A stretch of DNA of 55,012 nt from a bacterium (GTDB lineage: Bacteria; Auribacterota; UBA3054), in contig JAFZID010000167.1 in NCBI GenBank assembly GCA_017554565.1, positions 1-55,012 on the forward strand. The letters run 5' to 3'. Positions within the stretch are counted from its first letter, which is position 1. Each line of letters starts with the position of its first letter. Of the stretch, positions 20,489 to 49,217 are shown piece by piece. The notes under the pieces are model-generated. The model was not told the origin of the DNA. It did no database searches and worked only from the letters and a program-made list of their open reading frames with translations. A program made the position numbers and the translations under genes.

Positions 20489-20546
20489 ATTTAGATTTAC
20501 GGGGGGTGTTTCGTGATTTACGATTTAGATTTATGGGGGGGTGTTT
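20489..20546. repeat. Two copies of ATTTAGATTTAYGGGGGG(G)TGTTT, 34 bp apart
   Basis: Direct reading places the copies at 20489-20511 and 20523-20546, in the convergent intergenic region just 3' of the SpoU-family gene. Confidence 0.6.
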
Positions 20547-20548
20547 GC

Positions 20549-30268: not shown

Positions 30269-30380
30269 AGTTACCTCCTACAGGTTTGATTACAATCGCT
30301 ATTATTTTAACTAGCATATTAATTTTACTAAACTTTACCTCATAACAACCTATCCACCAGCCCAAACCGCCCCACCAAAC

Positions 30381-30410
30381 AAAAAAGCTCCGCCAAGCGA
30401 GGCTTTTTTC
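30381..30410. terminator. Imperfect bidirectional terminator-like hairpin downstream of the defence operon
   Basis: AAAAAA-GCTCCGC CAA GCGAGGC-TTTTTT. It is a near-copy of the 29834-29860 element. Confidence 0.5.
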
Positions 30411-30539: not shown

Positions 30540-31604
30540 TTATTTGTAAATCTGATCTCTGACAATTTCAACGAACCCTGTTATATCCAAGTAATAGTTT
30601 GGGTAGGCTTCGTTCAGTTGTTTAATAGAAGACACACGAACAAGTACCGCATCTGTTTTATCTTTCTCTCTGGTTTGTTCAATCTCATCATATTTTTTGT
30701 TTGCTTCCAAAAAATCGCTGGATTGATATAAGATAATATTCAACTTTTTTTCTTCGTAATTTAATTTCAAAATAGCATAAGCAGCATTTTTATCAAACTT
30801 TTTATCCTTATTAGCCTGAGTTGCAGACTTCACTCCAGAAAGAAATTCTAGATATTGATTTTTTATATCAAGTTCTTTAATTTCTTTTATAAGCTCTTCT
30901 TTACTAGATGGCGTATTGGGCACACATGGTTGTCCCTCTAAGATAGCAAAGAGAGATGAAACTAAAGCAAAAAAACGTCTAATATCACGTGACCCGCCAC
31001 CAGCTTTTATGGCCTCTCTTTTAAAAGTCCCCATGGTTTCTACGGCGGTTGCCCAAGCATGCTGAAGGCGAGAACGAAACTGAATTTCAATCAGCATGTT
31101 TCTGTTGTAGTCCTCACGTTTATCACTATGATATTTATATACTGCATGTAGACTTCTGTATCCATCTTCTTTTGGGTTCTTTATATAATCTTTAACTCTA
31201 ATTTTGATATGTCGTTTTCGAGATTTATCATATTTCTCGAAATATTCATAAACATTCTCTCCTGGCGGTACAACCATTCTACAACCACCTATGTCCTGCA
31301 TCTCCCATAAACTCATAAATGGCTCCCGCTCTAATTTGTTGATAATAGAGTCCTTTCTTTTTAATCTTTCGGCAACAATTATATTTGATTTGTTCTTAGT
31401 AAATCTTCGCAAGTGAATATAAATAACATGCATTGGAAAAGCGTGAGAGGCGCGCCAATTGTTCAGAACTTTTTCGGATTCTAAATCCAAACATCCTTTT
31501 TTTATATTCCGCCCAGCTTTTAAAATTTGGCCCTTTGAATACTCAAGTTTTTTCCATTTTGGTTGTTGGATTTTTTTCATATAATATTCCTCATCTTTAA
31601 GCAA
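30540..31604 (-). CDS. RelA/SpoT-domain protein (small alarmone synthetase / toxSAS-like) with a ~150-aa C-terminal extension
   Basis: Synthetase-fold motifs are MQDIGGCRMVV, DGYRSLHAVYKY and IEIQFRSRLQHAWATAVE. No HD hydrolase domain is present. Confidence 0.85.
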   Translation of the reverse strand: MLKDEEYYMKKIQQPKWKKLEYSKGQILKAGRNIKKGCLDLESEKVLNNWRASHAFPMHVIYIHLRRFTKNKSNIIVAERLKRKDSIINKLEREPFMSLWEMQDIGGCRMVVPPGENVYEYFEKYDKSRKRHIKIRVKDYIKNPKEDGYRSLHAVYKYHSDKREDYNRNMLIEIQFRSRLQHAWATAVETMGTFKREAIKAGGGSRDIRRFFALVSSLFAILEGQPCVPNTPSSKEELIKEIKELDIKNQYLEFLSGVKSATQANKDKKFDKNAAYAILKLNYEEKKLNIILYQSSDFLEANKKYDEIEQTREKDKTDAVLVRVSSIKQLNEAYPNYYLDITGFVEIVRDQIYK

Positions 31605-31640
31605 AAATTCAATTGTTTAAACGCTATTAAGCAAAATGTG

Positions 31641-32486
31641 TTATAAGCTTTTTTTAAGCTCGCTCATACGTTTTTTCCTTTCCACATGGTTAATTTTGAG
31701 AAAAACTAGTAATAATGTTTGATAGGTTTCATCATACCAATATTCGCGTTCTTCATCACTCATATTAGCCACAGCTTTTTTATAATTTTTGCTGTCTTTC
31801 CCAATATTATTATGGCGAATATTTAGGGTGTTTAGCAAAAATCCAATATCTGACCGGAGCGCCTTACTAATATGTTCAAGTTTTGTTTCGTAATTTTCTA
31901 GTTCAATGGCAAGTGATTCAAGCACTCTTCTTTTACCTTCAAGATTTCCTTTCATGGAGTTATGGTTATATTCCAATAAGAGAGACGACAAATCCTGGTT
32001 AAGTATTTCAGATACAGAAATAGCTGCTTGAGATTTGGGAACGATATGAGTTTCTCCTTCTTTTTCATTACACATATATCCCATTTTTTCTATTACAGTT
32101 AAAACTTGTTTTATATAAAGATCTAATGGTTCTTTCATTCTCTCTCTCCAACGATAAGGAATCTTTGAATCATTAGCATCTCTAGCACCGCATACCAAAT
32201 TATAAGAGTATTCACAAAAAGATAGCAAATAATCAACATCAGCATTGGCCGGAACAGATTCGCCAAAGCATTTTTTGTGGACACTATCGTAATCGGATAA
32301 TGTCAAACAAGTGTCGCGCAAGGTTATTTTCTTAAAGCTCTTAGAAATAAACTCTCTGATGGTGCAATAATCTGTAATATCTACATGGTGCGATTCTTTA
32401 TAAAATATATAGTAAAGTCTTTCATACTCTTTCTTCCAATTGAAAGATGTATCTTTCAAAACTTGAGAAAATGTTTTTCTTTCCAT
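31641..32486 (-). CDS. Hypothetical protein (281 aa) with no recognisable domain
   Basis: A long ORF in the operon's strand and composition. It lies 35 nt after the giant helicase gene and 36 nt before the RelA/SpoT gene. Confidence 0.7.
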   Translation of the reverse strand: MERKTFSQVLKDTSFNWKKEYERLYYIFYKESHHVDITDYCTIREFISKSFKKITLRDTCLTLSDYDSVHKKCFGESVPANADVDYLLSFCEYSYNLVCGARDANDSKIPYRWRERMKEPLDLYIKQVLTVIEKMGYMCNEKEGETHIVPKSQAAISVSEILNQDLSSLLLEYNHNSMKGNLEGKRRVLESLAIELENYETKLEHISKALRSDIGFLLNTLNIRHNNIGKDSKNYKKAVANMSDEEREYWYDETYQTLLLVFLKINHVERKKRMSELKKSL

Positions 32487-32521
32487 AACAAATGATTTAT
32501 CTAATGTTTATTTATAATTAA

Positions 32522-35500
32522 TCAAAATAAAGATTCGTATCTATATGTGTCTAATCCAGTATTACAGAGTGCAACGAAACCAGGCGAAAATTGCATGACA
32601 TTAAAGAAATGCCAGAATCCGTTCCATTCTTGTTCATATTTATTGGTCCTACTATCTAACCTATCATCGAGCATTGCACAAACAGATATGGGACAATACG
32701 GATCAAACTTGATTTTGTTAAAGGGAACCCCTGCATAAACATTAATATGTGCATCTGTGCCACGAGGGCTCCATGTACCAAATAACGTTTCCAAATAAAC
32801 AAATTCGTCTTCTACAAAATGTACCTGATCATTGATTATCTTTATTTGATTGATCCAAGAATCAAATCCTTCGTTGTTCTGGGTTGCGTTAGGTACTAAT
32901 AAAGATAACGAATAGGCTTTTGCTTGGGCTTGAAATAAATATTCGGCATTATCTAGTTCAAGATACTGCATAAGAAGTTCTAGTGTAGACATCCTATACG
33001 GCTTTAGTTTTTCTGCCTTTAAATAGCCAACAGTCGGATGATAGATATTTGATGGCATCTGTTCAGGAATAAGTGTTGGCGTAGCATAATTACTTTGTAT
33101 AGAGAAAGCCGATTTGACATCATGCCAGCTTAAAACCCAAACCCTATATTTCCCACTTCTCCTAATGGCTTCCCTTTTTAGCGTATCATCAGCGACATTG
33201 TCCTTATGATATTTATAGCCATCAGTGAAAATAGCAACCGGAAGTTTTTTGTCGTTATTTTTTGGTCTGATAATAAAATCTGGCTTACAGGTTACTTTCA
33301 CTCCTTGGGTGTGATCAAGCTTGACTTGAGGTTCTATTTCCCATTCGGCGTCATTAACCTTTAAGTTATAACCCTCTTTTCCATTGATAATGGATTTCTC
33401 TATTTCTACTTTACGACTGCTATTTCCCATCTTTGGAATGGCTGATATAAATAAGCGTTCCAATTCACTGTCAAACAGCGTATTAACAGGGACATCCGCT
33501 AATTTCTTAATCTTAGTCAGCTTATTCTTCCCGCTAAGAATCTTCTTTAGGATGCTAATTGCAGTGTTTCTGGATATGTTTCCAATATTCCGGCTCTGTC
33601 TATAGGCATATAAGCAGTGATAGCATCCATCTTTTTGAGGATCATCCTTGCATGAACAGTCCTCTAATTTTTGAAGGGCTCTTTCTAATATGTCTATCAA
33701 CGAGCCTTCTTGATTCATCAGCTGCTTCAGATACCCTGTTCCGCCAGGGACAGAATCATAGATAACAAGATATTGTTTACTGTAATCAGCATCAGTAACG
33801 GGAACTTCGCTAACAACGGCTCTTAGATGATCGACATTGCCAAAATATTCCTTCATACCTAGCATAAAAGCCGCCGTAAATGATTCTGTCCTGACCTTGG
33901 AAGAATCCAAAGTAGTTGCAGGTATCAGAATACGCAAAGCTTCAGTAGTAAATTCACGATACAAGAATAAGCAGTCTTCATATGGATTTTCTTCGCCAGA
34001 AGGTGATTTTCTTGTTTTGCAATAGAAGGTATGAGCATTATTATTTTGATCTGTTTGAATCTTCCCACAATGTTTACATATCCTAAATCCGTTTCTTACT
34101 TCCTCAACTCCGGAAACCATCAACTTCTCGCCAACCTGAGTTAACTCGCCGAAATTGATGTCACGAAGAGTTGCTTTCTTTACAAACTCATAGCCAAAGG
34201 AAAATTCATCGTTATCCATTTGATAAGCACAGGTAACGTCATTTCCTTCGTCAACGTCAACCAAAAGCTGCTTGCAATAGAAAGTGTTGGTCCTGCCGTC
34301 GCTGTCGTCTGATATCAAGCTATCAGCATACTTCATATTGGAATAGACCATCTGTACCTTTAACATATTCCTAACTTGACCGGCATCTGCCCAGCCAGGG
34401 CTTCCACATCTTGGACAAGTAGCGGTATTTTCGCCGGACACTTCTATTTCAGCATGGGAGCAATTCGGACACAATCTCCATTTTTCAAATTGAGCGCTAG
34501 TCAGATCAACCTGATCAACTTTTAACTTTCTCCCATCCACATAGAAGTTGTTATTGGGAGCAAATTCAGTAAGCGCTATAGAAGCTGATCGTCTATATTC
34601 ATAGGTCGATTTTGAATATTTAGAAGCGCCTTCATCTCCATCATCCTTGCGGTAAAGTACGGCCCTCAATATTATGCCCGATTCGGGGAATGCGTAATTC
34701 GGCAAAAGTCCTTCATCAGAAAGGAAATTAAATATGTCTTTTCTGTTGATTTCTTTTACCACGTTTATAAGAGCGTTTTTCTCGGATTTTAATTCCTTAA
34801 TTTCCTTCTCATATGATGAGTCTTTCGGCTTCTTCTCCAGATCCTTGATCATCATATTAAGCTCTTTAATACTCTTAGAAAGCGAGTCTCTCTGTTTTTT
34901 AAGAGCATTGAACGCTTCCAACACCTGGAGGTGCATCGGGCTTTTAAAATCAACGCCTTTAACAAACTCTTTAAGTTCCTTTTTTGCTATTTCGTCAATA
35001 TAATTGGAAAAAAGCTGAATAAAAGAACTTAAAAGTTGCGTGAGATTATCCTGAACATAGAGCAAAAAGTTAAACGGGAAAGCATCTGCGGGATGAGCAT
35101 CGAGTTTATTAAGCACTAGGCTGACATTCTTCGGAATAGAATCTTCTGTAGCGCCAGCTTTTACCCAGGTGTCCATACAATATGCTACAAATTGACGTTC
35201 AAGCACAGCAGAAGCCTTTAAAAAGATCTTCGGAGATACAACGTTTCCTTCTATCATTTCCAAAGGTTCGGAATAGAAGTACGAATCGTGAGGTTTAGCG
35301 GAAGCAATAGCCAGTGTCAAAGCATTTCCGTCTTTTCGTCCTGCGCGGCCAGTGCGCTGCAAGAATTGCGCTTGTGCAGGAGGAACACTACATAAAACGA
35401 TAGAGGAAAGGTCGCCGATATCAATACCCATTTCAAGCGTAGGCGTACAGCTTAGGACATTAGGATCCCACATTTTTGAAGAATCCTTTTTCCTCTTGAA

Positions 35501-38488
35501 ATCGTATTCAAGCGCTTCTCTGTTCTCCCGCTCCAAAAGACCAGTGTGTTCTCTGGCGTTGATTCTTACAATATCACCGGAAGAGAAAAGTTTTCCGTAG
35601 TAATCAAGTCCTACCGACACATCTTCTTTTAGTTTTCCAGAACATCCTTTTCTCAAACAATGAGCATCTTTCCAAAGAGCCTTGTTATTCTCGGAAACAG
35701 CATAAGTGATTCCACAGGTCTCGCATCTCTCAAAAGATACTTTATCGCTGATAATAACCTTAGATTTATCGATAGCAAAGATGCTGTACTCATCGTTTGC
35801 TTGAATATTAACTACCAATCCGCTCCTCACAAGCTCTTCAATGATAATATTGCAGACAGCACCTGCAGTATCTTCCATTATGATGTCGCTGCACGACAAT
35901 ATCCAAGATACATATTTCTTATCATTAATAGAATCAAACGTTGTTCTCTTCCTGCCTATACCATTCAATTGGTATATAAAGCGCGGAAGATTCCTGCCTG
36001 CCTGCAAGCCAGGAAGCCATTTTTCTTCGCTATTCGACAATAAATACGCTACACCATCATTTCTCAAATACTTTGAGAAACAATCATCATTAAAAGCGCC
36101 ATTTTGAGCCATTATCTTAAGATAACCAGCTACCATTTGAATAAAAGCATCTAATCCAACCTTATCCAAATTTCCAATTTCATTAACAGCTCTTTCATGA
36201 ACAACCTTGCCAACCTCTGAAATCACATCTGTTGGGAATTCCAAGCATGAACAGCCAGATTTTTCCAAAGTTCTACCAATTCTGCTAGCGAGTCCATATT
36301 CAAGCATAATCTCGTAGGATATACGCTTTTCAATATTCTTCATTAACGTTAAGGCTCTTTCATCATCACCAAACTTGCGCCTATTTATCATTTCTTCATA
36401 AGCGCTCATCCATACCATGTTAGGAGCAATAAAGAAACTCACGAAAGTCTCATTATCCCACTTGGCATGATAATATTTGATGAACCCTCTAGTAAAATCA
36501 ACAAAATTTAAACCTGCTCCACCATCTTGAACATATCTTTGAATAGCACTTCTAAGTCCAAATCTCCAAGTTCTAGCATTGAAAAAGCCCGCTCTATGCG
36601 CAGCATCTTGAACATTATCGGAAAAAGCCAATAACTTCTTATCATCGTTGAACTTCGAGGCAAAAATCTGTGATATTTCAGTACTGATCTCTGTTGCGCT
36701 CCTTAGACCCATTAGAGATAGGCCCCTCTTAGATCCGCAGAAGGGACAAACATATTGCTTAATATCTTGAGAGCCGCTTCTGGTTCGTTCTGGGGTTGCT
36801 ATGATAATATCTATCATCTCTGTACCGCAACTGTCACAGAGATTAGATTCTCTTTCAGCAGTTTGAACTTTAAGACAGTTAGGACATATACGACCATGAT
36901 CAGTCCTTCCGGGATGATCTTCATGATTATGAGGAAACATCATTACAACCTGTTCATCAGCATTGAAAAATAGATTATAAAAGGTTTCCAATTTCGTTAA
37001 AGTAGCGTTACGATGTTCATCCAATATAGATGTCCAGCCTGTTGCGCCACATTCCCTGCAGTTAACAACCGGTAAATAGTATTTAACCTGTTGTTCATTG
37101 AGATCATTAGCCAAGGCATAAGAAATCTCCTTACCAGATACCTTAGCCAACAATCTTCTAAGTTCCCTAATCCACAATTGTATTTGAACATTTAAGAAGG
37201 GACGCAACTTTTCAGGCTTTCCGGTACGCGCATGAGAAATCAAGGCAAGCAAAGCATTAACTGCTGCTTCAGCATCCTTAATTTCACCTAAAGCAGGATA
37301 TTCTGTTTTTAACGCTTCAATTATTGTGCTTACTTGGTAATATTTCCCTTTGATTAGACCTATCATTGATTGCATAAAGCTATGATGCATCAAATGATTC
37401 CCTAATTCTATCCTCCCTTCTGGCGTTAATATATCAACGCCATGCAAATTAGTCCAAGCAACAGCAGCTTCTTTTAGATATTCTTTTTCACTATCCTGAT
37501 CAACAAGGTTATTCAAACGAGCAATTTGATCAATCGTCGGAAAAGTCTTATCAGTTATTTCTTGCCCAGAAAAGAATTCTTCAGGACTTAATCTATCCTC
37601 AGTTACAACTGCATCTTCATCAAAAGGCTCTCCAAATACCTCTTCGGCATACTCCAATATATTCTCTTCATTCTCTTTTGATCCCATTGTAGCTGAAGTG
37701 CCAATACAGCAGATATGCTTTTCAGGAGTTGCCAATCTTGATTTAAGTCTTCTTAGCAAGCAGGCCAGATCTGTTCCTTGCGCTCCATCAAAGGTATGGA
37801 ATTCATCCACCGCCACAAACTTCAAAGTTTCTGGACCATTGTCTTTCCAAAGCTTAGCATCCTTCGGACGAACTAAAAGATAATCCAGCATCTTATAGTT
37901 CGTCATAAGGATATCCGGCGGATTAGACAACATTATTTCTCTGTCGGTAATCACCTTATCAGCTGTCATAACTTGATTAGGAACCAGTTCGAATCCACCC
38001 ACATACATTCCAGCCGTAACATTACCACGCAATTCAGGACTATTCCAAATCAATTCCGCAATACGTTTAGCCTGGTCTGAAGCCAAGGCATTCATAGGAT
38101 AAATAATCAGGGCTTTAATGCCTTTCTCTCCTCTGTGCCTATAGCAATACTCCAATATCGGATACAAGAAGCATTCTGTTTTACCAGAGCCAGTACCAGT
38201 AGCAATCAGAGTTGAACGACTGTCCTCTCCTGTCAATCTCTCAAAAGCAATCTGTTGATGCACATAAGGAAGATAAGCCGGATGTATCGCAGTAAAGCAC
38301 TTAGGCATCTCACTAGCAACGCGGAAAGGAAGGCGTACTGAGATATAAGGATCGTGATAAACAGCGTCCTTAGTTTCAAGCATCTTACGAATAGAACCAC
38401 GGAATGGTTCGTTCGTCATCGGAAAGGTCGTCTCTATATAATCAGAGATACCTTTCTCTAGTTGTTTTGCTAGTATTGATGGTAACAT
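32522..38488 (-). CDS. Giant (1988 aa) DEAD/DEAH-box helicase fused to a DUF1998-type zinc module and a C-terminal PD-(D/E)xK-like domain (DrmA+DrmB-like)
   Basis: Walker A is ATGTGSGKTE (aa about 97) and the DExH box is VDEFHTFDG (aa about 228). Motif VI QRTGRAGRKDG lies at aa about 1043. Cys clusters are CPNC...CPRC (about 1340), CKHC (about 1468) and GCYHCLYAYRQSRN (about 1619). PDFIIRP...VAIFTDGYKYHKD lies at about 1733-1765. Confidence 0.9.
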   Translation of the reverse strand: MLPSILAKQLEKGISDYIETTFPMTNEPFRGSIRKMLETKDAVYHDPYISVRLPFRVASEMPKCFTAIHPAYLPYVHQQIAFERLTGEDSRSTLIATGTGSGKTECFLYPILEYCYRHRGEKGIKALIIYPMNALASDQAKRIAELIWNSPELRGNVTAGMYVGGFELVPNQVMTADKVITDREIMLSNPPDILMTNYKMLDYLLVRPKDAKLWKDNGPETLKFVAVDEFHTFDGAQGTDLACLLRRLKSRLATPEKHICCIGTSATMGSKENEENILEYAEEVFGEPFDEDAVVTEDRLSPEEFFSGQEITDKTFPTIDQIARLNNLVDQDSEKEYLKEAAVAWTNLHGVDILTPEGRIELGNHLMHHSFMQSMIGLIKGKYYQVSTIIEALKTEYPALGEIKDAEAAVNALLALISHARTGKPEKLRPFLNVQIQLWIRELRRLLAKVSGKEISYALANDLNEQQVKYYLPVVNCRECGATGWTSILDEHRNATLTKLETFYNLFFNADEQVVMMFPHNHEDHPGRTDHGRICPNCLKVQTAERESNLCDSCGTEMIDIIIATPERTRSGSQDIKQYVCPFCGSKRGLSLMGLRSATEISTEISQIFASKFNDDKKLLAFSDNVQDAAHRAGFFNARTWRFGLRSAIQRYVQDGGAGLNFVDFTRGFIKYYHAKWDNETFVSFFIAPNMVWMSAYEEMINRRKFGDDERALTLMKNIEKRISYEIMLEYGLASRIGRTLEKSGCSCLEFPTDVISEVGKVVHERAVNEIGNLDKVGLDAFIQMVAGYLKIMAQNGAFNDDCFSKYLRNDGVAYLLSNSEEKWLPGLQAGRNLPRFIYQLNGIGRKRTTFDSINDKKYVSWILSCSDIIMEDTAGAVCNIIIEELVRSGLVVNIQANDEYSIFAIDKSKVIISDKVSFERCETCGITYAVSENNKALWKDAHCLRKGCSGKLKEDVSVGLDYYGKLFSSGDIVRINAREHTGLLERENREALEYDFKRKKDSSKMWDPNVLSCTPTLEMGIDIGDLSSIVLCSVPPAQAQFLQRTGRAGRKDGNALTLAIASAKPHDSYFYSEPLEMIEGNVVSPKIFLKASAVLERQFVAYCMDTWVKAGATEDSIPKNVSLVLNKLDAHPADAFPFNFLLYVQDNLTQLLSSFIQLFSNYIDEIAKKELKEFVKGVDFKSPMHLQVLEAFNALKKQRDSLSKSIKELNMMIKDLEKKPKDSSYEKEIKELKSEKNALINVVKEINRKDIFNFLSDEGLLPNYAFPESGIILRAVLYRKDDGDEGASKYSKSTYEYRRSASIALTEFAPNNNFYVDGRKLKVDQVDLTSAQFEKWRLCPNCSHAEIEVSGENTATCPRCGSPGWADAGQVRNMLKVQMVYSNMKYADSLISDDSDGRTNTFYCKQLLVDVDEGNDVTCAYQMDNDEFSFGYEFVKKATLRDINFGELTQVGEKLMVSGVEEVRNGFRICKHCGKIQTDQNNNAHTFYCKTRKSPSGEENPYEDCLFLYREFTTEALRILIPATTLDSSKVRTESFTAAFMLGMKEYFGNVDHLRAVVSEVPVTDADYSKQYLVIYDSVPGGTGYLKQLMNQEGSLIDILERALQKLEDCSCKDDPQKDGCYHCLYAYRQSRNIGNISRNTAISILKKILSGKNKLTKIKKLADVPVNTLFDSELERLFISAIPKMGNSSRKVEIEKSIINGKEGYNLKVNDAEWEIEPQVKLDHTQGVKVTCKPDFIIRPKNNDKKLPVAIFTDGYKYHKDNVADDTLKREAIRRSGKYRVWVLSWHDVKSAFSIQSNYATPTLIPEQMPSNIYHPTVGYLKAEKLKPYRMSTLELLMQYLELDNAEYLFQAQAKAYSLSLLVPNATQNNEGFDSWINQIKIINDQVHFVEDEFVYLETLFGTWSPRGTDAHINVYAGVPFNKIKFDPYCPISVCAMLDDRLDSRTNKYEQEWNGFWHFFNVMQFSPGFVALCNTGLDTYRYESLF

Positions 38489-38509
38489 GCTGCATATCTC
38501 CCAACATAA

Positions 38510-39637: not shown

Positions 39638-41211
39638 TCTATAGCATCCTCAACATATTTTGGTATTAAAAATTTTTCCTCAGACAATAGCATTTTATAT
39701 GCTGAATCAACTTTATTATTAAGCATTTTTCCAAGAACTGGGTCTTGATCATAATCTTTATCATGATATTTGTAATTAGCTCCAGACTTAACTTCAATTA
39801 TATTTTCAAGTAAATTTTTATTGTTATTATAAATGCATACTTCCCAAGTAAATTCATTTAAATCCTCTGGAATAAATATTCTTTGTAATTTCCTTCCTTC
39901 ATCCTTGTTAAATGAATCAGCATCATCTAATTTGCTCTTTTTACCATCATTATCTGTTATCACAGCTATCTTTTTATTTAGGCAGTTCACAGTTCTTAGA
40001 TAGTTCTTATAAGAAATTCCGTTGCAAGAGATAACGGAAATTTCATCAGCATCAATCGTTCTGCCTGTTTGAAGTTTATAAAAATAAGGAATTAACATAT
40101 ATTCTGTAGCTCCCTCGACCAAAATTACTTTTTTAGATAATAAGAATTGTAAAAATGAATTGTCATCAGCTTTAACAAAGAAATCAGCCACATCATTATC
40201 AACAGATTCTAGCGATACAGACTCAAAATCGTTTATCCAAATAACATGTTTAAGATTAAGTCGGCTTGTAATTAAATTGCTATGCGTCGTAACAATAATT
40301 TGAGAATCATCTTTTTTATTGGAAATTTCATGTAACATTTTTATCAATGTTGTATAGCTTAAATGATTTTCTGGTTCCTCAATCAAAATTACATCAAGGT
40401 TGTTTTTCTTATTTAAAGCTATTTGAGTTTTGATCAAGCTCTCCATACCACTACCACGATTTTCAAGTGATATAGATTCTTCGTAAACAGATAAAATGGT
40501 ATCTAAAACAACTTTTTTGCTATCGACTCCAAATTTTCTTCTTTCATCAATATCCGGAAGCTCTATTTCTTTAAATGCTTCTTCTAGTTTATCTCGGAAA
40601 ATATTTTTGGCTCTTTGACGTTCTTTATCATCATATTTACTATTAAATAAAGATTTATTAAAGTAGCTAAAAGAAGGATAGCCGAAATTAGTTGTATCAA
40701 TTGATATGAAATTTAGTGGACGTTTAATTAATTGATATGGCCTATTAGCAAAAGTCGTCCAAGACATTTCATAATACTCGTATGGAATTTTTCCCTGAGA
40801 TATAAATTCATTTAAGCCTTCTCCGATATCATCATTAAATTTACATTCAAATCGTATGCCATATTTTTCTTCTTGTGAAATTTGTTTACCATAAACTTCT
40901 CCAAAAAAATATTCAGCGTTTTTATTATCCTTTTCAAGATTAAATTCAATTTCAATTAAAATTTTTGGAAGAGTCTTAACACTAGGATTATCTTTAAATT
41001 CATTAACACAAGTCACGTTAAATAAATCACACAATATTGACTTATCAGAACTCCTATATTGTTGATTTAAGACAACCTTTATTGCTTCTAAAATAGTACT
41101 TTTCCCCGACTCGTTTTCTCCAACAAGAATATTCATACTTTCATTGAAATTAATCTGAAAATCTTTGAATTTCTTGAATCCATTTATTGTCAAACTTTTA
41201 ATATGATTCAT
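39622..41211 (-). CDS. OLD-family ATP-dependent nuclease: ABC-type ATPase plus Toprim (GajA-like, class 2 OLD)
   Basis: Walker A is VGENESGKST and Walker B is VILIEEPENHL, followed by VTTHS. Toprim elements are VILVEGATEY (Glu) and VITDNDG (DxD). Confidence 0.85.
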   Translation of the reverse strand: MNHIKSLTINGFKKFKDFQINFNESMNILVGENESGKSTILEAIKVVLNQQYRSSDKSILCDLFNVTCVNEFKDNPSVKTLPKILIEIEFNLEKDNKNAEYFFGEVYGKQISQEEKYGIRFECKFNDDIGEGLNEFISQGKIPYEYYEMSWTTFANRPYQLIKRPLNFISIDTTNFGYPSFSYFNKSLFNSKYDDKERQRAKNIFRDKLEEAFKEIELPDIDERRKFGVDSKKVVLDTILSVYEESISLENRGSGMESLIKTQIALNKKNNLDVILIEEPENHLSYTTLIKMLHEISNKKDDSQIIVTTHSNLITSRLNLKHVIWINDFESVSLESVDNDVADFFVKADDNSFLQFLLSKKVILVEGATEYMLIPYFYKLQTGRTIDADEISVISCNGISYKNYLRTVNCLNKKIAVITDNDGKKSKLDDADSFNKDEGRKLQRIFIPEDLNEFTWEVCIYNNNKNLLENIIEVKSGANYKYHDKDYDQDPVLGKMLNNKVDSAYKMLLSEEKFLIPKYVEDAIEWISK

Positions 41212-41222
41212 AATAGTGTCTC

Positions 41223-44200
41223 CTATATTTTTCCATATTTATCTTCAAAGAATTTCCATGCCGTTTCATAATCCTTTTCTCGATCGCATCTATCAAAAGG
41301 TGCAATGTATTCAATCGTACGTTCAACTGGACCTCCAGGCATAGTATCATCCGTTACAGTACGATAAAATTTTTCACCTGCTGGAGCCCCTTTTTTCCCA
41401 TTTTCCCATTCTTGACGAGAATAACCAACACCTGTTAAACTGCGATTGTTAGTGAAAACTATGCGGCCATTTGCATCGTACCAGGTATCTGATTCATACT
41501 CTTTAAGTATATAAAATTGGCTTTGATAAATAGAAATAAGTTGTTTAAGAGATATACCCAAAGCCATTGCAACAAGAACATCAATTTCTATTAACGCTTG
41601 TCTGCGTTCAAAATCAGTACGAAGAGGACAATTCTTATCCCACTTTGATGATAAAGAAAGGAAATGATCATTGCTAAGTCTGCTATCTATTTTAGCCCAT
41701 TTTCTTTCCCTAAAGGTATTGTGCCAACATTCTTCCCATAATTTTGAATAATGACTTGTTAAGCAATTTAAGACAAGAGCAATACAAGATGCTTCAAGAA
41801 TTTTATCATTATTTATAAAAGGAAGAGGCCTTAATAAACCAATCCCACCAGAATTCTTACCTGTACATTTAATATAAAAATCATAGGGCAATGATGATAA
41901 TAACGATTCAACAAAAGGTAGTTTATTTATGTGTTTAAATCCTATTTCTAAGACGGCATGTACATGTCCGATTTTTGGTGAAAGTATTGCAGGAACTAGT
42001 GTTCTTTCTCCGCCTTGTCCAAGCATATTTCGCATAAAAATACGATAATTTAAATAAGATTTTTCTCCCCAAGGAGTAATTGGAGCTCTGTTATCATATT
42101 CGGTAATATCACATTTAGGGCTATAATTACAACGCTGTAAATAATCATCTGGAATTATAGTTAAATCAATATTGTCATAATCGCTATTCAATCTACACAC
42201 TCTTCTGGAAGCTTTAAACAATGGATTAGAAACCAGAATATGCGGACCAGAGATAATTAGATCTATCGCTGAGTTTGGAAAATGAACATTCCTTTTTATG
42301 GTTCCGTCATTTTGCCTATTAGTTTCGTGCCACATCTCAGAAACAGATATCTCATCAAACATCTTCCCTAAATTAACTTCTTGATTTGCAAAACACTGCA
42401 AAACATCAACATATAGCATTTCGTGTATAACGGGTAGTCGAGCAGTTTCCCATTTCGAACTATTGTCAAATATATTTGCAAAAATAGTTAGTTCTTTTTT
42501 TGATACATGTACTATTCTATTTGGATGTCCTTTAGTACACCATCCATTTTCATCTTTTATTCCAGGTACTGGCAATATAGGATCTCCATCATAACATTCC
42601 TCTATAGTGCTAGGAATATAAAGATTGCTAATAGAGTCAAATTGAGGTAAGTCAAGTGGACCACCATACACATTCAAACTGAATGTAGTATGGTGGTGCA
42701 CTTCGGGAAAAAGTTTACGCTCGTTCGCAAACATAAAATGCTTGCGAAGACGCGGATATAATTTTTCTCGAAGTGCACCACCCTGAGGATCGTCATATAC
42801 ACCCTCAGGGTGAATGAACGCACTAACACCTTGGCTAGTATTAAATTGCCATGCCTGAGGCAAAAAACATTTAAACAAGTTAGTTTGTTGTCCCTTAAGA
42901 TCAATATAATTATGCTCAGAATTCAAAAAAGCTTGTTCTCCAGATAATGATTCGTATTCTGAAAAATACATCTTTTTTGAAGTTTCCGATTCTAAGGCAT
43001 CATTACGAAAATTAGTTGTTTCACTTGCAGTTAATCTTTTAACAGCAAACATTGGTTGAATATCGGAAAGCATTCCCTGCTCGTTCCATTCAATTTTAAT
43101 CCAGGGCGGATTTCCAATAATTAAATCAAATCCTCCATGTTCAGCAAAAAGATCAGCAAACTCAAGCTCCCAATGCATAAAATGATTTTGTTCTGCTATC
43201 TTTTTAACTAGCGCTAATCTTGGGTAAAGGGTGCAGAGTTCTTCGAGATCTACTTGTTTAATATTCTCTTCTTCTGACTCGGCTTCTGGTTGATCTTCGC
43301 TAAACAAATCACCTTGCGTTCCTTTTTGTGTTTTAGGTCTTGAAATTTCTTCCCCAAACAAATCTCCTTGTTTTCCCTGCTTGGATTGAGTGCCCATAAC
43401 ACCACGCAGAATCATATCCATATCTTGGATAAATTCTTGTCTGGTGGGTAGAAGATTGGCTTCAGTGATTGGCCAGAACCAGAGGGCGCACCAGTAGTCC
43501 ATAGCAAATTTGAGTCTTGCGTATGCTCCTGCGTTCTTAGCTCTCTCTGACTTATAGATGTTGGAAAGGTATTTGTCTTTCTCTCGGATAGTCAGATGAT
43601 TATCTTTACGAGAGTCATGTTGACCGTAAATATCAAGAGAGGTTATCGTTTCTCTTTCGAGCAATTGCCTGTCTGAGACTTGCTGTTTCCAGAGAACATC
43701 TACTACTTTTGATAGCTCAATTAGTGAATTGAATTCTTGTTCGGAGTACTTCTTTATAAAATCTTTGTTCCAGTTTTTCATTAGCCTGATATTCTCAGGC
43801 TCCAAATCTTTTATGACCCTGTCTGTATATTTGCACATACCTGGATCACCGGTAAGGAAATGATAGACCTGGAATCTGGAACGAGCGATGTTTCTTCCGC
43901 TGGCATCTAATTTAGTAAAGGGAATACGTTCAGGAGCATTTTCGTACCAGCGTTTTCCGTTTTCTGATGTGGTTAGCTGATTCTTATGATAGACCTGGCG
44001 TCTAGCTCCTATAAGGGAGTTGCCGTTTACTAGCTGTGTTCCGAACCAAGGAACATAGCCGCCTTCGTAAATAGTGTTGAGCCAGAGTGAGACTTCAGCT
44101 AGCTCTACAGCAACAGGGTTAAGGTCAATGCCATAAACGTTGTTGTCGGCAATATACATTTTGACCTTCTGGAGTTCCTGTAAGCGTTTATCGGCAGGGA

Positions 44201-46037
44201 TCAGCTCTCCTTTTTCTTCTTGTTTTTTGTTCAGATAGGCTTCCGCAAGCTGATTGATAGCCTCGTTCAAGAAGGCTGCACTTCCCATAGCTGGTTCGCA
44301 AACCTTAAGATTAAGGATCTCGTCTGCAGTTTTATCCTGTAGTAATTCCTTCAGAGCATATTTGACTAGACACTTTGTTAGAACTTCAGGCGTATAGTAG
44401 GAAGCTGATTTTTCTCTTTCTCTACCCGCCAATCGATAGATAAACGTGCCTTTCTCATATTTTCTGAGATCTCCTTGCCTATATCTTCCATCTGGATCAT
44501 CTCTATCATAGCGGACTCGCTCGGCTTCGGTATATTGTTCGAGTTCTTCTTCAGCTACAAAATAGCCTACGTCTAGCTCATTGAAAGTGTCGCCGGCTTT
44601 TTTGACCTCAAAGAGAGTGTGTTCAGCTATAAATCCCCTATATGAAAGCAAAGCTTCATATACGGCGCCTAACTGGTTGATACCGAGGTTTGCGTAGGAA
44701 ATACGTCCGCGTCTGGAGTTCCTTCTTCCTGTTTCTCTGGTCAAGCTCATGAGATCAATGATTCTGAGCATAACCTTGTTGCGTATCTTAGACTCTGAAA
44801 TCATTTTCGTATATTCAGGATCAAAGATATGCGCCTTTAGGGGAGAGATTAAGAACATGTCATGAAGACTCTCTTCTTTGGAATACTTGATGAGATCTTC
44901 TTCCTTTTTAGGATAACCATTGTAAATAAGGTCATAGAGCTTAGAGAGGGACTCGTGAAGATAAAAACCTTCTCCAACTTCAGTAACGTCGTCTCGTACG
45001 CTGTCAGCAATGTCTCTAAGACTTTCCAGGGAATATCCTGTCAGATAAGATTGAGCCTTAATAGGGGCGTAGCCCAGTTCCGGACGCGATTCAATGAACA
45101 ACATGAAAAGCATACGATACATATAGCGCAGACATTCAATAGTAAGCTGTCCGGCATCGACAGGATCAGTTTCAAAGTTCCTGCCGAGACGATGCTTCAT
45201 GTCGTAAAGGACTTCATTACCTAAAAGCTCAATGCACTCTCTAAGGGCGTATTTAAGATCCTGGGAAACGCCGGCTGCGTGCCTTTGAGAATTGGCGTCT
45301 AATTGATCTATAAGACTTGTCCCGTCTTCTGGGCAGAGACTGTCTTTATGAAGAAGGACCGCCATTGCCTGAAGAGTGGATTCTTCATGACGGCTGAATA
45401 TATCCTCTAGTTCGAATTGGAGAAAACGCTTTTCGTTCCACTTATTTCTATCGATCAGCGCGATCTGATTCATCCCTATAAGGATTACAAATCTCGGAGG
45501 CTCGGCTTGGCCAAAAAAGATTTTCGTTACAAGATCTTCATTTGTGATTGTGGTTAAGCAATTTGACGGAACACTATTTTGGCCTTCTTCACCTATGTCA
45601 TTAATAGAAAAACAATATTTATCAAGGATAGAGGATTCTTTGTCTTCAGAAGCAGCTAATAAAACCCAAAGAGCCGGAGCACCGTTAGCTTTTTTTATTT
45701 CAAGATAAACTGGTGCTTTCGTATCATCATCGATCTGTATCCATTCAGGTGAGGCAGAAGGATAATTTAAAGAAGAAAGATAAAGATCGGCTAAACTACG
45801 GATGTTTGAAACTGTTTGGGTGTCAAATCTTGATCTTAAATAACGATCGTGAATCGTGTAATACTGTCTTGCGCAGTCTCTAAGACGAGACCAGGGCGTT
45901 TTTACTCCTTCCCCTTCCTTAGCTTCAGCTCTCCACTTAGAAATAGTTTCAGAAGCATTCTCCTCAAAAATAGAGGAGAAGTAATGATTCGTATAATATT
46001 CGTTCTGGTTAGTAATACCAGTTAAATCCATGCTCAT
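41223..46037 (-). CDS. Very large (1604 aa) Eco57I-type N6-adenine DNA methyltransferase (DrmMI-like)
   Basis: SAM motif I is VCEPAMGSAAFLNEAI (aa about 578), followed by YGIDLNPVAVELAEVSLWL. Catalytic motif IV is IIGNPPWIKIEW (aa about 973). I see no nuclease motif. Confidence 0.9.
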   Translation of the reverse strand: MSMDLTGITNQNEYYTNHYFSSIFEENASETISKWRAEAKEGEGVKTPWSRLRDCARQYYTIHDRYLRSRFDTQTVSNIRSLADLYLSSLNYPSASPEWIQIDDDTKAPVYLEIKKANGAPALWVLLAASEDKESSILDKYCFSINDIGEEGQNSVPSNCLTTITNEDLVTKIFFGQAEPPRFVILIGMNQIALIDRNKWNEKRFLQFELEDIFSRHEESTLQAMAVLLHKDSLCPEDGTSLIDQLDANSQRHAAGVSQDLKYALRECIELLGNEVLYDMKHRLGRNFETDPVDAGQLTIECLRYMYRMLFMLFIESRPELGYAPIKAQSYLTGYSLESLRDIADSVRDDVTEVGEGFYLHESLSKLYDLIYNGYPKKEEDLIKYSKEESLHDMFLISPLKAHIFDPEYTKMISESKIRNKVMLRIIDLMSLTRETGRRNSRRGRISYANLGINQLGAVYEALLSYRGFIAEHTLFEVKKAGDTFNELDVGYFVAEEELEQYTEAERVRYDRDDPDGRYRQGDLRKYEKGTFIYRLAGREREKSASYYTPEVLTKCLVKYALKELLQDKTADEILNLKVCEPAMGSAAFLNEAINQLAEAYLNKKQEEKGELIPADKRLQELQKVKMYIADNNVYGIDLNPVAVELAEVSLWLNTIYEGGYVPWFGTQLVNGNSLIGARRQVYHKNQLTTSENGKRWYENAPERIPFTKLDASGRNIARSRFQVYHFLTGDPGMCKYTDRVIKDLEPENIRLMKNWNKDFIKKYSEQEFNSLIELSKVVDVLWKQQVSDRQLLERETITSLDIYGQHDSRKDNHLTIREKDKYLSNIYKSERAKNAGAYARLKFAMDYWCALWFWPITEANLLPTRQEFIQDMDMILRGVMGTQSKQGKQGDLFGEEISRPKTQKGTQGDLFSEDQPEAESEEENIKQVDLEELCTLYPRLALVKKIAEQNHFMHWELEFADLFAEHGGFDLIIGNPPWIKIEWNEQGMLSDIQPMFAVKRLTASETTNFRNDALESETSKKMYFSEYESLSGEQAFLNSEHNYIDLKGQQTNLFKCFLPQAWQFNTSQGVSAFIHPEGVYDDPQGGALREKLYPRLRKHFMFANERKLFPEVHHHTTFSLNVYGGPLDLPQFDSISNLYIPSTIEECYDGDPILPVPGIKDENGWCTKGHPNRIVHVSKKELTIFANIFDNSSKWETARLPVIHEMLYVDVLQCFANQEVNLGKMFDEISVSEMWHETNRQNDGTIKRNVHFPNSAIDLIISGPHILVSNPLFKASRRVCRLNSDYDNIDLTIIPDDYLQRCNYSPKCDITEYDNRAPITPWGEKSYLNYRIFMRNMLGQGGERTLVPAILSPKIGHVHAVLEIGFKHINKLPFVESLLSSLPYDFYIKCTGKNSGGIGLLRPLPFINNDKILEASCIALVLNCLTSHYSKLWEECWHNTFRERKWAKIDSRLSNDHFLSLSSKWDKNCPLRTDFERRQALIEIDVLVAMALGISLKQLISIYQSQFYILKEYESDTWYDANGRIVFTNNRSLTGVGYSRQEWENGKKGAPAGEKFYRTVTDDTMPGGPVERTIEYIAPFDRCDREKDYETAWKFFEDKYGKI

Positions 46038-48853
46038 TATGCTATCCCCCTTATCACAGCAATGATTCGAATATAGGGATTATTCTGAATTGTCAAAGTG
46101 TCTTTAACCCAGGTCTCAAACTTATTAAACAATTCATCGACTTTTCGTTCGTTCTCATCTCTTAGACGTGCATCTACAAATAATGATCTTTGGTAAACCT
46201 TATGCTTGGATTCAAGTTTAGCTAGCTTATTGATTTCCTCATCAAGAAGAGGACTCATACGACTAACATACTCCTTATATTTGGCATCTAGGTATTCTTT
46301 AGCGCGAGCTACGACATCTTGGCGTAAGCTCATTGCCTCAGCTATCTCGGCTTCTGAGAGAGCGTTTCTGTTGGGAATATTGAGGCCATTTAACCCTGTC
46401 TTGTTCAAGACCTTTTGAATTGTTAAAGTATCTGAATATTTTCCATTTTCATATACTAGGCCAAAACACTCGTCTACCAAAGGCGTTGATTTTTTGTTGG
46501 GGATTGTACCGGCAACTACAAAAATTATCTCAGAAGGTTTTAATACGCCATTTAATCCTATGATAGGCGCTTGCCCTCTATCGAACAGCAGATCAGATTT
46601 TTCATTGATCCAAGTGAACAATGGGTGCTGCTTCCATAGATACTGAACTTTAGGCCAGGCTGTCTCAGCCATATTATTTTGCATGCTGCGTTTCATTTCA
46701 CTCATGCAAAAGTTTTTATCATCGGAAAGTCTTAATGTATCACCCTGAGGCATCGCTTCGTCAGGGAGAAGAGCTTTCAGCCTCCTTTTCATGTCAGGCG
46801 TGATAGTAACATCTAAGCCTGTCACCCTTTCTAACCTTCTGACAGGGTGAGCCTCAGAATTATTTAAAAAGCCTAATGAATGTTCCAGATAGTCTATGTC
46901 TGAGAAAAGGGTTTCATCAGTTTTAGTCCTTGCGGGTGTGCTTCCCTCAGACGAAGCTGCCATAAGAGCCTCGAAAGGATTAAATTCTTTTTCTCCATCC
47001 TCCAATAGTTTTTTAAAGGCGGAAGAATCCGACCCGTTTTCAATAACCTCAGAAACAACCTGCTCTTCTTCCTCGGCAGTGTATTTGCCCAATAAAAGCG
47101 TTGGATCGCCAATATTCTTCAAAGCTTGCTCTTCTTTATCGACAAGAATATCGATAATACGCATATCGCCCTTTATTCTGGGATTAGCGCTTTCTATGAA
47201 CATATACCGAATATCAGGGCGTTTCTGTTGACCATATCTATCGATTCTTCCGTTCCTTTGCTGGAAAACCATTAGTGACCAGGGGATGTCGAAATGGATC
47301 ATTCTATGGCTTAGATAATGCAAGTTGAGTCCCTCGGAAGCAACATCAGAAGCCACAAGTATTCGAATAGGTGATTCTTCTCGCCCAAATTTTTCTACAA
47401 TGTCCTGTTGGTCTGTATCGCTCATCTCACCAGAAATCTCTTGAACAGCATCATTTGGCAAATTCAGATCTCTTCTGAGCTGAGCCGCTAGGAATTTCAT
47501 GGTTTCAATGCGTTCTGTAAAAATCACAACACGGTCATCTTTTTCCCTAGTCCATCCGTATTCATTGCTTTTTAACAAAGAGAGTAACTTCTGATAGCGG
47601 GAAAAATCTTCTGATGTTATGGCAGCAATAGCTTCTTTTAATGTTTCCAAGGATTCTATATCTTTGATGTCATCTTGCCCGTTTCTTTTCTTTAACTTGG
47701 CTAATCTGGCATCGATGCTCTTAATGCACGCCGCTGGGCTAGAAAAGAGAGATTTTTCCAAAATGGTTTTAAACAATTGGCTTGCGGTTCCTCTTTTCGC
47801 ATCCATTTGAAGTTCCATTTCAGCGAAAATGGAATAAGCCTTTTCCTCTTTTTCGGATGCCGGACATAATTCTTTAGTGACTACCCTTTCCAAAAACGAT
47901 CCGGCAACCTGATTTTTAACGTCTTTTTTGAAGCGACGAACACACAGTCCTTTTATGTCTTCCTTTGTATAATGCTCAGGATCAGCTATGGCCGTAGGAT
48001 CAAGCATATTCATCAAAGAAGCAAAGCTTTTCGCTCGCCCATCATGCGGCGTTGCAGAGAGCATAATCATCGTATCGGATCTATCCGCTAGCAGTTTTGC
48101 TAGTCTTGCACGTTGAGCTTGCCTGTCTCCTCGTTCAGCTACGTTCTGTGCTTCGTCAATAACTATAATATCCCAGTAAGCGTTTTCAAGATGTGTCCTA
48201 TACTCAACATCTCGTTTAAGAGTATCAATGGAAACAATGGTTTTATCGTAGTAAAAGAAAGGATTGTAGTTGGATGGAAGCTTAGATCTGATATCCTGTA
48301 TCTTTTTAGAATCTAATCTAACGAGAGGTATAGTGAATCGATTCCACATTTCCTTTTGGAATTGTGTCATCATGCTTTTGGTAGTAACAACAAGAATTCG
48401 TTTCCCTTTTCCCCTTGCAATCAGCTCACTCATCAGAATGCCAGCTTCGAGTGTCTTGCCTAAACCCACAGAATCAGCAATAAGAATACGCTGCCTTGGC
48501 CTCTTCAGAGACATTTGTGCAGGCTCCAGCTGATAAGGCATAAGGTCCATTGCCGCGTTATTCCCAATATGCAGATCTGTGTCAGTCGGTATTTGTTGTC
48601 TCAACTGACTTTCAAGATATAGCTGAGTCCTTCTAAAGTGGGGTGAAGAATCAGGAATCAGCTCAACTTCGGCCGGATTTACGATGGTAATATCTTCGAT
48701 ATCGGTTAAGAAGATACTTTCTTTATCTTTGACAAGCGGAGAAATACCAACACAGTGCAACGCTTGGTTGCCCATATTGTTCATTTCAACTTTTTTGACC
48801 ATCCATTCTTCTTGCCGAATGATGACCCTCATTCCCGGAGCGTACTCTATCAT
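46037..48853 (-). CDS. SNF2-family (RapA/HepA-like) helicase (DrmD-like)
   Basis: Motifs are LIADSVGLGKTLEAG, IVIDEAQNV, MLSATPHDG and QQRNGRIDRYGQ. Its stop overlaps the methyltransferase start (TAATG at 46035-46039). Confidence 0.9.
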   Translation of the reverse strand: MIEYAPGMRVIIRQEEWMVKKVEMNNMGNQALHCVGISPLVKDKESIFLTDIEDITIVNPAEVELIPDSSPHFRRTQLYLESQLRQQIPTDTDLHIGNNAAMDLMPYQLEPAQMSLKRPRQRILIADSVGLGKTLEAGILMSELIARGKGKRILVVTTKSMMTQFQKEMWNRFTIPLVRLDSKKIQDIRSKLPSNYNPFFYYDKTIVSIDTLKRDVEYRTHLENAYWDIIVIDEAQNVAERGDRQAQRARLAKLLADRSDTMIMLSATPHDGRAKSFASLMNMLDPTAIADPEHYTKEDIKGLCVRRFKKDVKNQVAGSFLERVVTKELCPASEKEEKAYSIFAEMELQMDAKRGTASQLFKTILEKSLFSSPAACIKSIDARLAKLKKRNGQDDIKDIESLETLKEAIAAITSEDFSRYQKLLSLLKSNEYGWTREKDDRVVIFTERIETMKFLAAQLRRDLNLPNDAVQEISGEMSDTDQQDIVEKFGREESPIRILVASDVASEGLNLHYLSHRMIHFDIPWSLMVFQQRNGRIDRYGQQKRPDIRYMFIESANPRIKGDMRIIDILVDKEEQALKNIGDPTLLLGKYTAEEEEQVVSEVIENGSDSSAFKKLLEDGEKEFNPFEALMAASSEGSTPARTKTDETLFSDIDYLEHSLGFLNNSEAHPVRRLERVTGLDVTITPDMKRRLKALLPDEAMPQGDTLRLSDDKNFCMSEMKRSMQNNMAETAWPKVQYLWKQHPLFTWINEKSDLLFDRGQAPIIGLNGVLKPSEIIFVVAGTIPNKKSTPLVDECFGLVYENGKYSDTLTIQKVLNKTGLNGLNIPNRNALSEAEIAEAMSLRQDVVARAKEYLDAKYKEYVSRMSPLLDEEINKLAKLESKHKVYQRSLFVDARLRDENERKVDELFNKFETWVKDTLTIQNNPYIRIIAVIRGIA

Positions 48854-48956: not shown

Positions 48957-48978
48957 AAAGGGGTTTTGGGCGGCTGCA

Positions 48979-49186
48979 CTAGTAAAATCAGTGTACTTCA
49001 CTACTGAAATTAGTGTAATGCTAGTGGTGTTGATAGTATGCTAGTGAAGGGGATAGCGTGCTAGCAGGATTGGTAGTAAACTAGCGAAAGGGGTAGTGTG
49101 CTCGTGAAAATGCTAGTGCGCTAGCAAAATCGCTGTACTTTACAACCAAAATCAGTGTAATGCTAGCGAAAGTGGTAGTGTGCTAG
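48979..49186. repeat. Phased CTAG-delimited repeat array: 42-nt unit, five 20-nt units, 42-nt unit, one 20-nt unit
   Basis: By direct reading every unit ends in (G)CTAG, with one CTCG variant. The 20-mers have the consensus YGAARGGGTAGTGTGCTAG. The two 42-mers are about 79% identical. There are 9 CTAG sites in 208 bp. Confidence 0.8.
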
Positions 49187-49217
49187 TAAAAAGGGTAGAA
49201 AAGGTATGGTTGGTTTG

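Follow-up and report, generated by a model that had tools for sequence, protein, structure and literature searches.

Do seven tightly packed genes of low GC content make up a single anti-phage machine, or are they several machines that share one operon? The question is raised by a block at positions 30540-48853 of contig JAFZID010000167.1 (by "the window" we mean the whole stretch analysed, 55,012 nucleotides (nt) in length), in which all seven open reading frames (ORFs) lie on the minus strand. A preliminary description of this DNA had proposed an undescribed composite defence system with a DISARM-like core, and the ORF positions, strand, junctions, low GC and terminal hairpin that it gave are all real. 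Its headline does not hold, as the core is that of ARMADA Type II, a validated system, and we are confident that the block is a mosaic of independent, already described anti-phage modules, horizontally acquired and co-directional, on an ARMADA II backbone. The main value of this result is negative: what appears to be a seven-gene system is an incomplete ARMADA II, a Gabija, a CapRel and one gene of unknown function, and the block should not be pursued as a new system. It is an ordinary mosaic defence island, the by-products of its analysis being a cargo slot within ARMADA operons and the gene family to which the unknown gene belongs.

ARMADA Type II genes and a missing operon end

The four-gene ArmABCD architecture, named ARMADA Type II, has been validated experimentally (Bell et al. 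2025, PMC12458937; bioRxiv 10.1101/2025.09.15.676423) and is known from E. coli NCTC 12900, ATCC 8739 and, as the island OI-172, EDL933 (Bell et al. 2025; mBio 2026, PMC13463889). Its gene order has been called 'strict', and runs from ArmA, a BrxHII/SNF2 helicase, and ArmB, a PglX-like methyltransferase, to ArmC, in which a YprA-like DEAD helicase is joined to DUF1998 and, at the C-terminus, to a Vsr-type nuclease, often with inactive EEP and Vsr domains after it, and ArmD, a GajB-like UvrD helicase whose RelE-like N-terminus is a translation-targeting toxin-like domain (PMC12458937). The system protects E. coli directly and without abortive infection, and defence is lost when any one of the four is deleted (PMC12458937); all four arm genes are likewise needed in OI-172 of enterohaemorrhagic E. 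coli, and DefenseFinder predicted ARMADA II in EDL933 (PMC13463889).

Three of the seven proteins are full-length or nearly full-length counterparts of these components. The first gene, armA (46037-48853, minus strand), encodes a BrxHII/RapA-like SNF2 helicase of 938 amino acids (aa) that is 46% identical to E. coli ArmA over its full length (811 bits), carries the Pfam domains SNF2-rel_dom and Helicase_C, and places its Walker A K133 and Walker B D233 against the essential K136 and D236 of the E. coli protein. Translationally coupled to it by a 1-nt overlap is armB (41223-46037, minus strand), whose product, a PglX-like N6-adenine DNA methyltransferase of 1604 aa with Pfam Eco57I and N6_Mtase domains, is 43% identical to E. 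coli ArmB over its full length (1294 bits) and keeps both the GxG glycine (G585, E. coli G605) and the NPPW asparagine (N976, E. coli N971). The fifth gene, armC (32522-38488, minus strand), encodes a 1988-aa protein with a YprA-family DEAD helicase, a DUF1998/MZB module and a Vsr-type PD-(D/E)xK nuclease; residues 1-1969 align with 1-1989 of the 2113 residues of E. coli ArmC at 36% identity (1292 bits), and K103 and D228 line up with the essential K110 and D234. The Vsr-like nuclease motif CKPDF...AIFTDGYKYH is kept, and the match of the restriction endonuclease (REase) family MTES_1575 to this region is weak and sub-threshold. All six residues mutated by Bell et al. are therefore conserved in the window's ArmA, ArmB and ArmC. 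For the block as a whole, the domain calls made in the preliminary description are borne out by Pfam, which recovers SNF2, N6-MTase/Eco57I, OLD ATPase-Toprim, UvrD-like, DEAD with Helicase_C and MZB (DUF1998), and RelA_SpoT domains, the 281-aa sixth protein having no match.

The arrangement of these genes is as telling as their sequences. Using the seven window proteins, we searched 80 loci around relatives of the window's ArmC, taken from species-representative genomes of Firmicutes, Proteobacteria, Cyanobacteria, Acidobacteria, Verrucomicrobia, Bacteroidota, Thermotogae and Planctomycetes. Under strict criteria, 45 of the 52 loci that offer 9.5 kb or more of upstream DNA have homologues of ArmA and ArmB upstream of the ArmC homologue, in matching order and strand; the ArmB-ArmC synteny rises to 48/52 if two edge fragments and one inverted copy are counted. 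One of these clusters, the four-gene cluster of the Enterobacter locus L065, matches ARMADA II loci of E. coli, present in 528 of 5426 genomes, at 84.5% nucleotide identity.

We considered the possibility that the armB product is a Type IIG restriction-modification (R-M) enzyme, and do not favour it. The PADLOC 'Type IIG' profile PDLC03614 does match it end to end (842 bits), but also models the ArmB of L065, which it scores at 918 bits, and no nuclease domain is detectable: Pfam finds none in the first 529 or the last 525 residues. Indeed, PDLC03614 and PDLC03611 ('REase_MTase_IIG') match ArmB proteins end to end, and PDLC02572, labelled 'DrmA', matches the SNF2 protein ArmA. Profile libraries of the 2023 era would thus mislabel ARMADA loci as Type IIG R-M plus fragments of DruE or DrmD.

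The window's copy of this operon is not whole. Homology of its ArmC to relatives ends within a few codons of the stop, at a deletion or replacement joint (32487-32540, minus strand), and the protein is without the last ~120 aa of ArmC, that is, the terminal Vsr-like domain, which is predicted to be inactive and can be aligned in 49 of 73 loci. In this very large family relatives are mostly ~2105 aa long; complete ArmC ORFs in the related loci measure 1939-2285 aa (median 2132, n=72), and the 1988 aa of the window are shorter than all of these but one, an ORF of 1939 aa in L026 that stops within ~75 nt of the end of its contig. ArmD is missing altogether, and tblastn with the ArmC C-termini and ArmD proteins of relatives finds no remnant in the 55-kb window. 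Contigs from six other assemblies run across the joint at 99.7-100% identity, and the joint therefore reflects a real, lineage-specific deletion or replacement. Elsewhere, ArmD is a UvrD-type superfamily 1 (SF1) helicase of ~700 aa with an extra N-terminal domain, encoded 3' of ArmC; tblastn with E. coli ArmD detects it in 66/66 loci with at least 2.3 kb of DNA 3' of ArmC, within 1 kb in 64 of them, and the closest relatives (71-72% ArmC identity) all retain it. Both the absence of ArmD and the truncation of ArmC had escaped the preliminary description. ARMADA Type I, which has the reversed order, was considered because ArmD is absent, and was set aside in comparisons with Type II: close relatives (62-72% identity) all carry ArmD, and the window's ArmC follows its E. 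coli Type II counterpart as far as residue 1989 of 2113.

Judged by these alignments, the window locus is an incomplete ARMADA II, a derivative or remnant. By analogy with E. coli, the NPPW adenine methyltransferase ArmB, the SNF2 translocase ArmA and the helicase/Vsr-nuclease ArmC would act jointly in a direct, non-abortive defence, in which self and non-self would be told apart by methylation; discrimination of unmodified DNA by ARMADA has likewise been inferred (PMC13463889). The window copy has lost the 3' end of the operon, with ArmC's last domain of ~120 aa and all of armD. As deletion of armD abolishes defence in two E. coli strains (PMC12458937, PMC13463889), we lean towards an ARMADA part that would be defective as a restriction system, with an active methylase left behind. 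Whichever way this falls, nature has here deleted armD and left ArmA-C intact, a case met once in 67 loci (66 related loci and the window), and the lineage is thereby well suited to asking whether ArmD is needed everywhere.

Cargo between armB and armC, and two genes downstream

Between armB and armC lie two genes in which the preliminary description recognised a Gabija-like pair, and full-length profile matches agree. The first, gajA (39622-41211, minus strand; 529 aa), encodes an OLD-family ABC ATPase-Toprim nuclease that matches the PADLOC GajA profile PDLC00102 over its full length (293 bits), has Pfam AAA_15/AAA_21 and OLD-like_TOPRIM domains, and bears the Walker A motif GENESGKS and the Toprim motif EGATE...TDNDG. 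The second, gajB (38510-39637, minus strand; 375 aa), overlaps it by 16 nt and encodes a short UvrD-like SF1 helicase with the motifs AGAGKT and VLIDEFQD, matching the GajB profile PDLC00148 at 132 bits over all 369 positions. With phmmer against the PDB, the gajB product shows no similarity to any chain, GajB included, and the gajA product only a P-loop-level match to the AAA-family ATPase 9n69, so that the assignment to Gabija depends on profile matches from PADLOC and Pfam. GajAB, a complex of nuclease and helicase, is under the control of nucleotide levels, and here it would presumably work autonomously, as an interchangeable cargo of the armB-armC junction.

How common is such cargo? Among the 53 loci with both armB and armC, the gap between the two is at most 100 nt in 18 and exceeds 600 nt (0.7-9.5 kb) in 31 (58%). 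The ORFs that fill it are mostly non-homologous and 79% co-directional, and those sampled include Mokosh MkoA (1722 bits), Eleos LeoA/LeoB, Tiamat TmtA (1062 bits), a GmrSD-like Type IV REase, a SIR2-like protein and Ppl-like ATPases. Even the closest relatives, at 71-72% ArmC identity, each hold something different: a Schlafen/AlbA_2 ATPase, a kinase with a DUF1016 nuclease, or pairs of unknowns. Gabija occupies the same slot in only one of the 80 ARMADA-related loci, L016 of Lacrimispora amygdalina, which keeps its ArmD. With such varied cargo in 31 of 53 slots, the armB-armC junction is a cargo hotspot of which Gabija is one interchangeable occupant. This cargo goes unmentioned in the ARMADA paper (PMC12458937), and it has a bearing both on automated detection and on work that looks for synergy among co-expressed systems.

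Directly after armB, L015 (6563-6973) and L016 (6819-7238) share a conserved small ORF of 136-139 aa with no Pfam match, which precedes different cargo in each and is absent from the window. ArmD follows ArmC at a distance of 7.5 kb in L035 and of 3.7 kb in L078, so that armC and armD may enclose a further cargo position, used less often than the first. Directly downstream of ArmD, the close relative L097 holds a complete Wadjet (JetABCD; 18430-24830) and L096, also closely related, a set of Fic, DarT-like and ADP-ribosylglycohydrolase genes (19435-23121), and such defence genes 3' of ArmD imply that ARMADA II typically sits inside larger defence islands.

The sixth gene, g6 (31641-32486, minus strand), encodes 281 aa of unknown function. 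Profile searches of Pfam, PADLOC, NCBIfam and PHROGs gave no match, nor did phmmer against the PDB, and its AlphaFold2 model, predicted at high confidence (pLDDT 90.4), has no structural match by Foldseek in the PDB or BFVD, leaving the fold unmatched. Its family, with proteins of ~280 aa, nonetheless numbers 1,341 representatives when clustered at 50% identity. In 80 related metagenome loci (L102-L181, examined alongside L008-L014), hsdS lies alongside in 66 and hsdR in 60, and the g6 relatives almost always stand between these two genes of a Type I R-M operon, the layouts being several. Near-duplicates are numerous among the loci, and the counts therefore overstate their independence; there are at least five layouts, with two HsdR families. 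CapRel, ArmA-C or Gabija neighbours occur in none of the 80. The only two fusions seen in the family are to the N-terminal domain of HsdR (HSDR_N) and to the specificity domain of HsdS (Methylase_S). We picture g6 as a stand-alone passenger, whose usual home is the hsdS-hsdR slot of Type I R-M operons. Since accessory genes embedded in R-M-type loci are known, namely PrrC in the Type IC system EcoprrI and BrxU in a BREX island (PMC12707154), g6 may, speculatively, be an R-M-associated accessory or guardian, and its family makes a promising candidate for a new R-M-associated gene with a role in defence or regulation.

The last gene, g7 (30540-31604, minus strand), encodes 354 aa if read from a TTG start. 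It probably begins instead at the ATG at 31580, giving 346 aa, as indicated by a GAGGAA Shine-Dalgarno sequence, the start chosen by gene callers in public assemblies and the point at which alignment to CapRel begins; the gap between g6 and g7 is then 60 nt. The 354-aa reading aligns by phmmer with CapRel-SJ46 (PDB 7ZTB) at E 2e-39, residues 13-343 against 6-361 of 373, a span that takes in the C-terminal antitoxin/sensor region, where similarity is low. R80, R109 and Y149 line up with three residues of CapRel-SJ46, the first two with R79 and R116, which coordinate ATP, and the third with Y155 of the G-loop; Pfam RelA_SpoT covers residues 79-191, and two profiles match over the full length, PADLOC PDC-S33 (373 bits) and phrog_4773 (307 bits). 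By homology, then, g7 is a CapRel-type fused toxSAS toxin-antitoxin. CapRel is a single-gene abortive-infection system in which a phage protein triggers tRNA pyrophosphorylation (Zhang et al. 2022, PMC9712102), and g7 would be equally self-contained, presumably aborting infection by the same route. Neither g6 nor g7 has a homologue in any of the 80 ARMADA-related loci.

One machine or several?

Could the locus be a functional, rewired ARMADA, in which GajB and/or g6 or CapRel compensate for the lost ArmD? We find this improbable, although it is the alternative that fares best. ArmD is itself GajB-like with a translation-targeting toxin-like domain, and the window supplies both a GajB and a translation-targeting toxin beside an ArmA-C set whose catalytic residues are conserved; the arrangement persists in several samples, and Type I ARMADA needs no ArmD. 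Against this, L016 keeps ArmD despite the Gabija in its slot, the g6 and CapRel families are independent of ARMADA everywhere else examined, ArmD has no sequence similarity to g6 or g7, and all 66 other loci retain the gene whose deletion abolishes defence in E. coli. The proposal can be taken further, at the same low probability: armB-armC would be a docking site whose cargo is co-expressed and functionally coupled, so that GajB as helicase and g6 or CapRel as effector would yield a working ARMADA variant. Given the HsdR neighbours of its family and the ArmC next to it here, g6 might, in a related scenario, serve methylation-based restriction systems as a new 'guardian'.

Several points do speak against our own reading of an incomplete ARMADA II with independent cargo. 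The ORFs of ArmA, ArmB and the truncated ArmC are all intact and keep every catalytic residue that we checked, which would be unexpected of an ARMADA system long dead, and at least seven samples show a stable arrangement. As Type I works without ArmD, a three-gene mode is possible, and our view of the functional status is inferred from E. coli genetics at ~36-46% protein identity. The Gabija in the L016 slot shows a divergence like that of the arm genes, so that some preferential association is possible. Lastly, joint expression of all seven genes, discussed below, is compatible with functional coupling.

That the seven genes form one undescribed composite system, with components working together, is in our estimation very unlikely, even though the layout gives it a certain appeal. 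All ORFs are intact, co-directional and tightly packed, the junctions in gene order being a 1-nt overlap, an 11-nt gap, a 16-nt overlap and gaps of 21, 35 and 36 nt, and PADLOC 2.0.0 has no single system model that covers the locus. A terminator-like hairpin with a U-run (30380-30409, minus strand) lies 3' of g7, with an imperfect stem, a folding energy of -18 kcal/mol and a z-score of only -1.2; consensus promoter- and terminator-like sites in the region are no more numerous than in shuffled sequence, so that the claim of a sole terminator rests on the shape of this one hairpin. Gaps of 11-36 nt are too short for separate promoters or terminators, which makes joint expression of all seven probable, and from the spacing and the single terminal hairpin the genes are likely to be co-transcribed. 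The more cautious option in the preliminary description, a co-regulated multi-layer operon, is thus plausible. Such co-transcription would, we suggest, reflect cargo embedded in an operon rather than a single seven-component machine. Composition points the same way: per-gene GC is 0.28-0.41 in the block as against 0.53-0.59 in host genes on both sides, GC3 (GC at third codon positions) is 0.17-0.39 as against 0.67-0.81, and within the block GC3 falls into three classes; the arm genes lie at 0.32-0.39 and differ from the Gabija pair, with gajA at 0.20 and gajB at 0.17. The seven-gene synteny, moreover, was found nowhere else: the sub-modules assort independently in homologous loci, with g6 and g7 in 0/80 and Gabija in 1/80 ARMADA loci, no other gene of the set near the 80 g6 relatives, and interchangeable cargo in the slot. 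The core is published as ARMADA II, and, g6 apart, each module can be placed in a defined system by means of profile tools and published work. Independent assortment and assignment to defined systems are both outcomes that the preliminary description had itself named as refuting its proposal.

Nor do we see more than the slightest chance that the locus is a class 1 DISARM variant with drmA and drmB fused and drmC lost. The resemblance in gene content on which the preliminary description built is real, ARMADA having been named 'DISARM-related' and its ArmC likened to a fused DrmA/DrmB (PMC13463889); both systems share the YprA helicase and two further proteins, and the DrmD profile matches ArmA at 326 bits (BrxHII at 210 bits), the DrmMI profile ArmB at 191 bits. 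It is also correct that no PLD-type DrmC domain is found in any of the seven proteins by Pfam or PADLOC, and that helicase and DUF1998 form a single polypeptide. The proteins are nevertheless orthologues of ArmA, ArmB and ArmC, not of DISARM components: the DrmMI match is partial, as against 842 bits over the full length of an ArmB-type profile, and the supposed DrmA/DrmB fusion scores 63 bits on the DrmA profile, 384 bits on DruE and 1292 bits against E. coli ArmC. With 'Type IIG' and DruE profiles far outscoring those of DISARM on these two proteins, the PADLOC check, which returns GajA/GajB for the Gabija pair, PDC-S33 for g7 and nothing for g6, had already left the DISARM reading weak. The clade of relatives is, besides, defined by a conserved UvrD-like fourth gene, ArmD, which is not a DISARM component. 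A Druantia variant with ArmC as its DruE, as 2023 profile libraries suggest from their best PADLOC matches to this protein (DruE1 384 bits, DruE3 348 bits), is just as hard to credit, because those matches are partial and recur for the ArmC of L065, which speaks for relatedness at family level, the direct comparison with the true DruE of the same E. coli island is local and yields 128 bits as against 1292 for ArmC, and PADLOC profiles find no DruH or DruA-D/M/F/G partner.

Flanking DNA and comparison with known systems

The low-GC tract does not stop at armA. Directly upstream lies a Sel1-repeat gene (49218-50513, minus strand; 431 aa, 9 repeats), and as its composition is also foreign (GC3 0.35), the acquired tract reaches through it to a length of ~20 kb. 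No homologues of this gene, or of the downstream orf126, were found in the 80 ARMADA-related loci. In the 364-nt gap between the Sel1-repeat gene and armA, where we found no small regulator ORF, a degenerate direct-repeat array (48957-49202, no strand) is built of units of ~40 nt, for example ATGCTAGYGAAAGKGGTAGYGTGCTAG, within a 142-nt super-repeat; an 82-nt segment recurs 142 nt apart at 76% identity, and related words are also present downstream of g7. Perhaps this array is a regulatory or boundary element. A tRNA scan of the window and Pfam searches of the flanks revealed no tRNA, integrase or att-like boundary.

A second low-GC island (3691-14081, plus strand; GC 0.33-0.48) comprises five large, closely spaced ORFs of 703, 614, 602, 800 and 736 aa, with essentially no Pfam matches and no PADLOC matches. 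At its edge stands a gene for a Fic-domain protein (14085-15209, minus strand; 374 aa), which matches the PADLOC SoFic profile at 134 bits.

How, then, does the locus compare with systems already described? Its last gene shares with CapRel-SJ46 the design of a single-polypeptide toxSAS, aligned from end to end and with the equivalents of R79, R116 and Y155 kept, but overall identity is low, above all in the C-terminal sensor, and g7 is chromosomal, standing beside an ARMADA remnant and not in a recognisable prophage. The gajA and gajB genes have the order expected of Gabija, an OLD ATPase-Toprim gene and then an overlapping UvrD-like helicase gene, with motifs intact; they differ as a divergent subfamily with a short GajB of 375 aa that is embedded in the operon of another system. 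This embedding, like the usual hsdS-hsdR position of the g6 family, follows the pattern set by PrrC and BrxU, to which g6 itself has no similarity.

The large helicase shares the YprA architecture with the DruE of Druantia III (DruH-DruE), whose profiles match it, and the YprA homologues of ARMADA are indeed closest to those of Druantia (PMC12458937). No DruH accompanies it, however, its similarity to DruE is some tenfold weaker than that to ArmC, and the nuclease is of the PLD type in DruE and of the Vsr type in ArmC (PMC12458937). Class 1 DISARM and the window have in common an SNF2 helicase, a large N6-adenine methyltransferase and a YprA-family helicase with DUF1998, but here the latter two features belong to one polypeptide of 1988 aa that brings its own Vsr-type nuclease, and there is no PLD-type DrmC. 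It is with ARMADA II that the likeness is closest: the first, second and fifth genes are armA, armB and armC, in the same order and on the same strand, with the Walker A and B, GxG and NPPW residues and the ArmC Vsr-type motif conserved. The window departs from ARMADA II in having neither ArmD nor the terminal ~120 aa of ArmC, in that neither Zorya nor Druantia is a neighbour and no tRNA or integrase is present, and in the Gabija pair that splits armB from armC.

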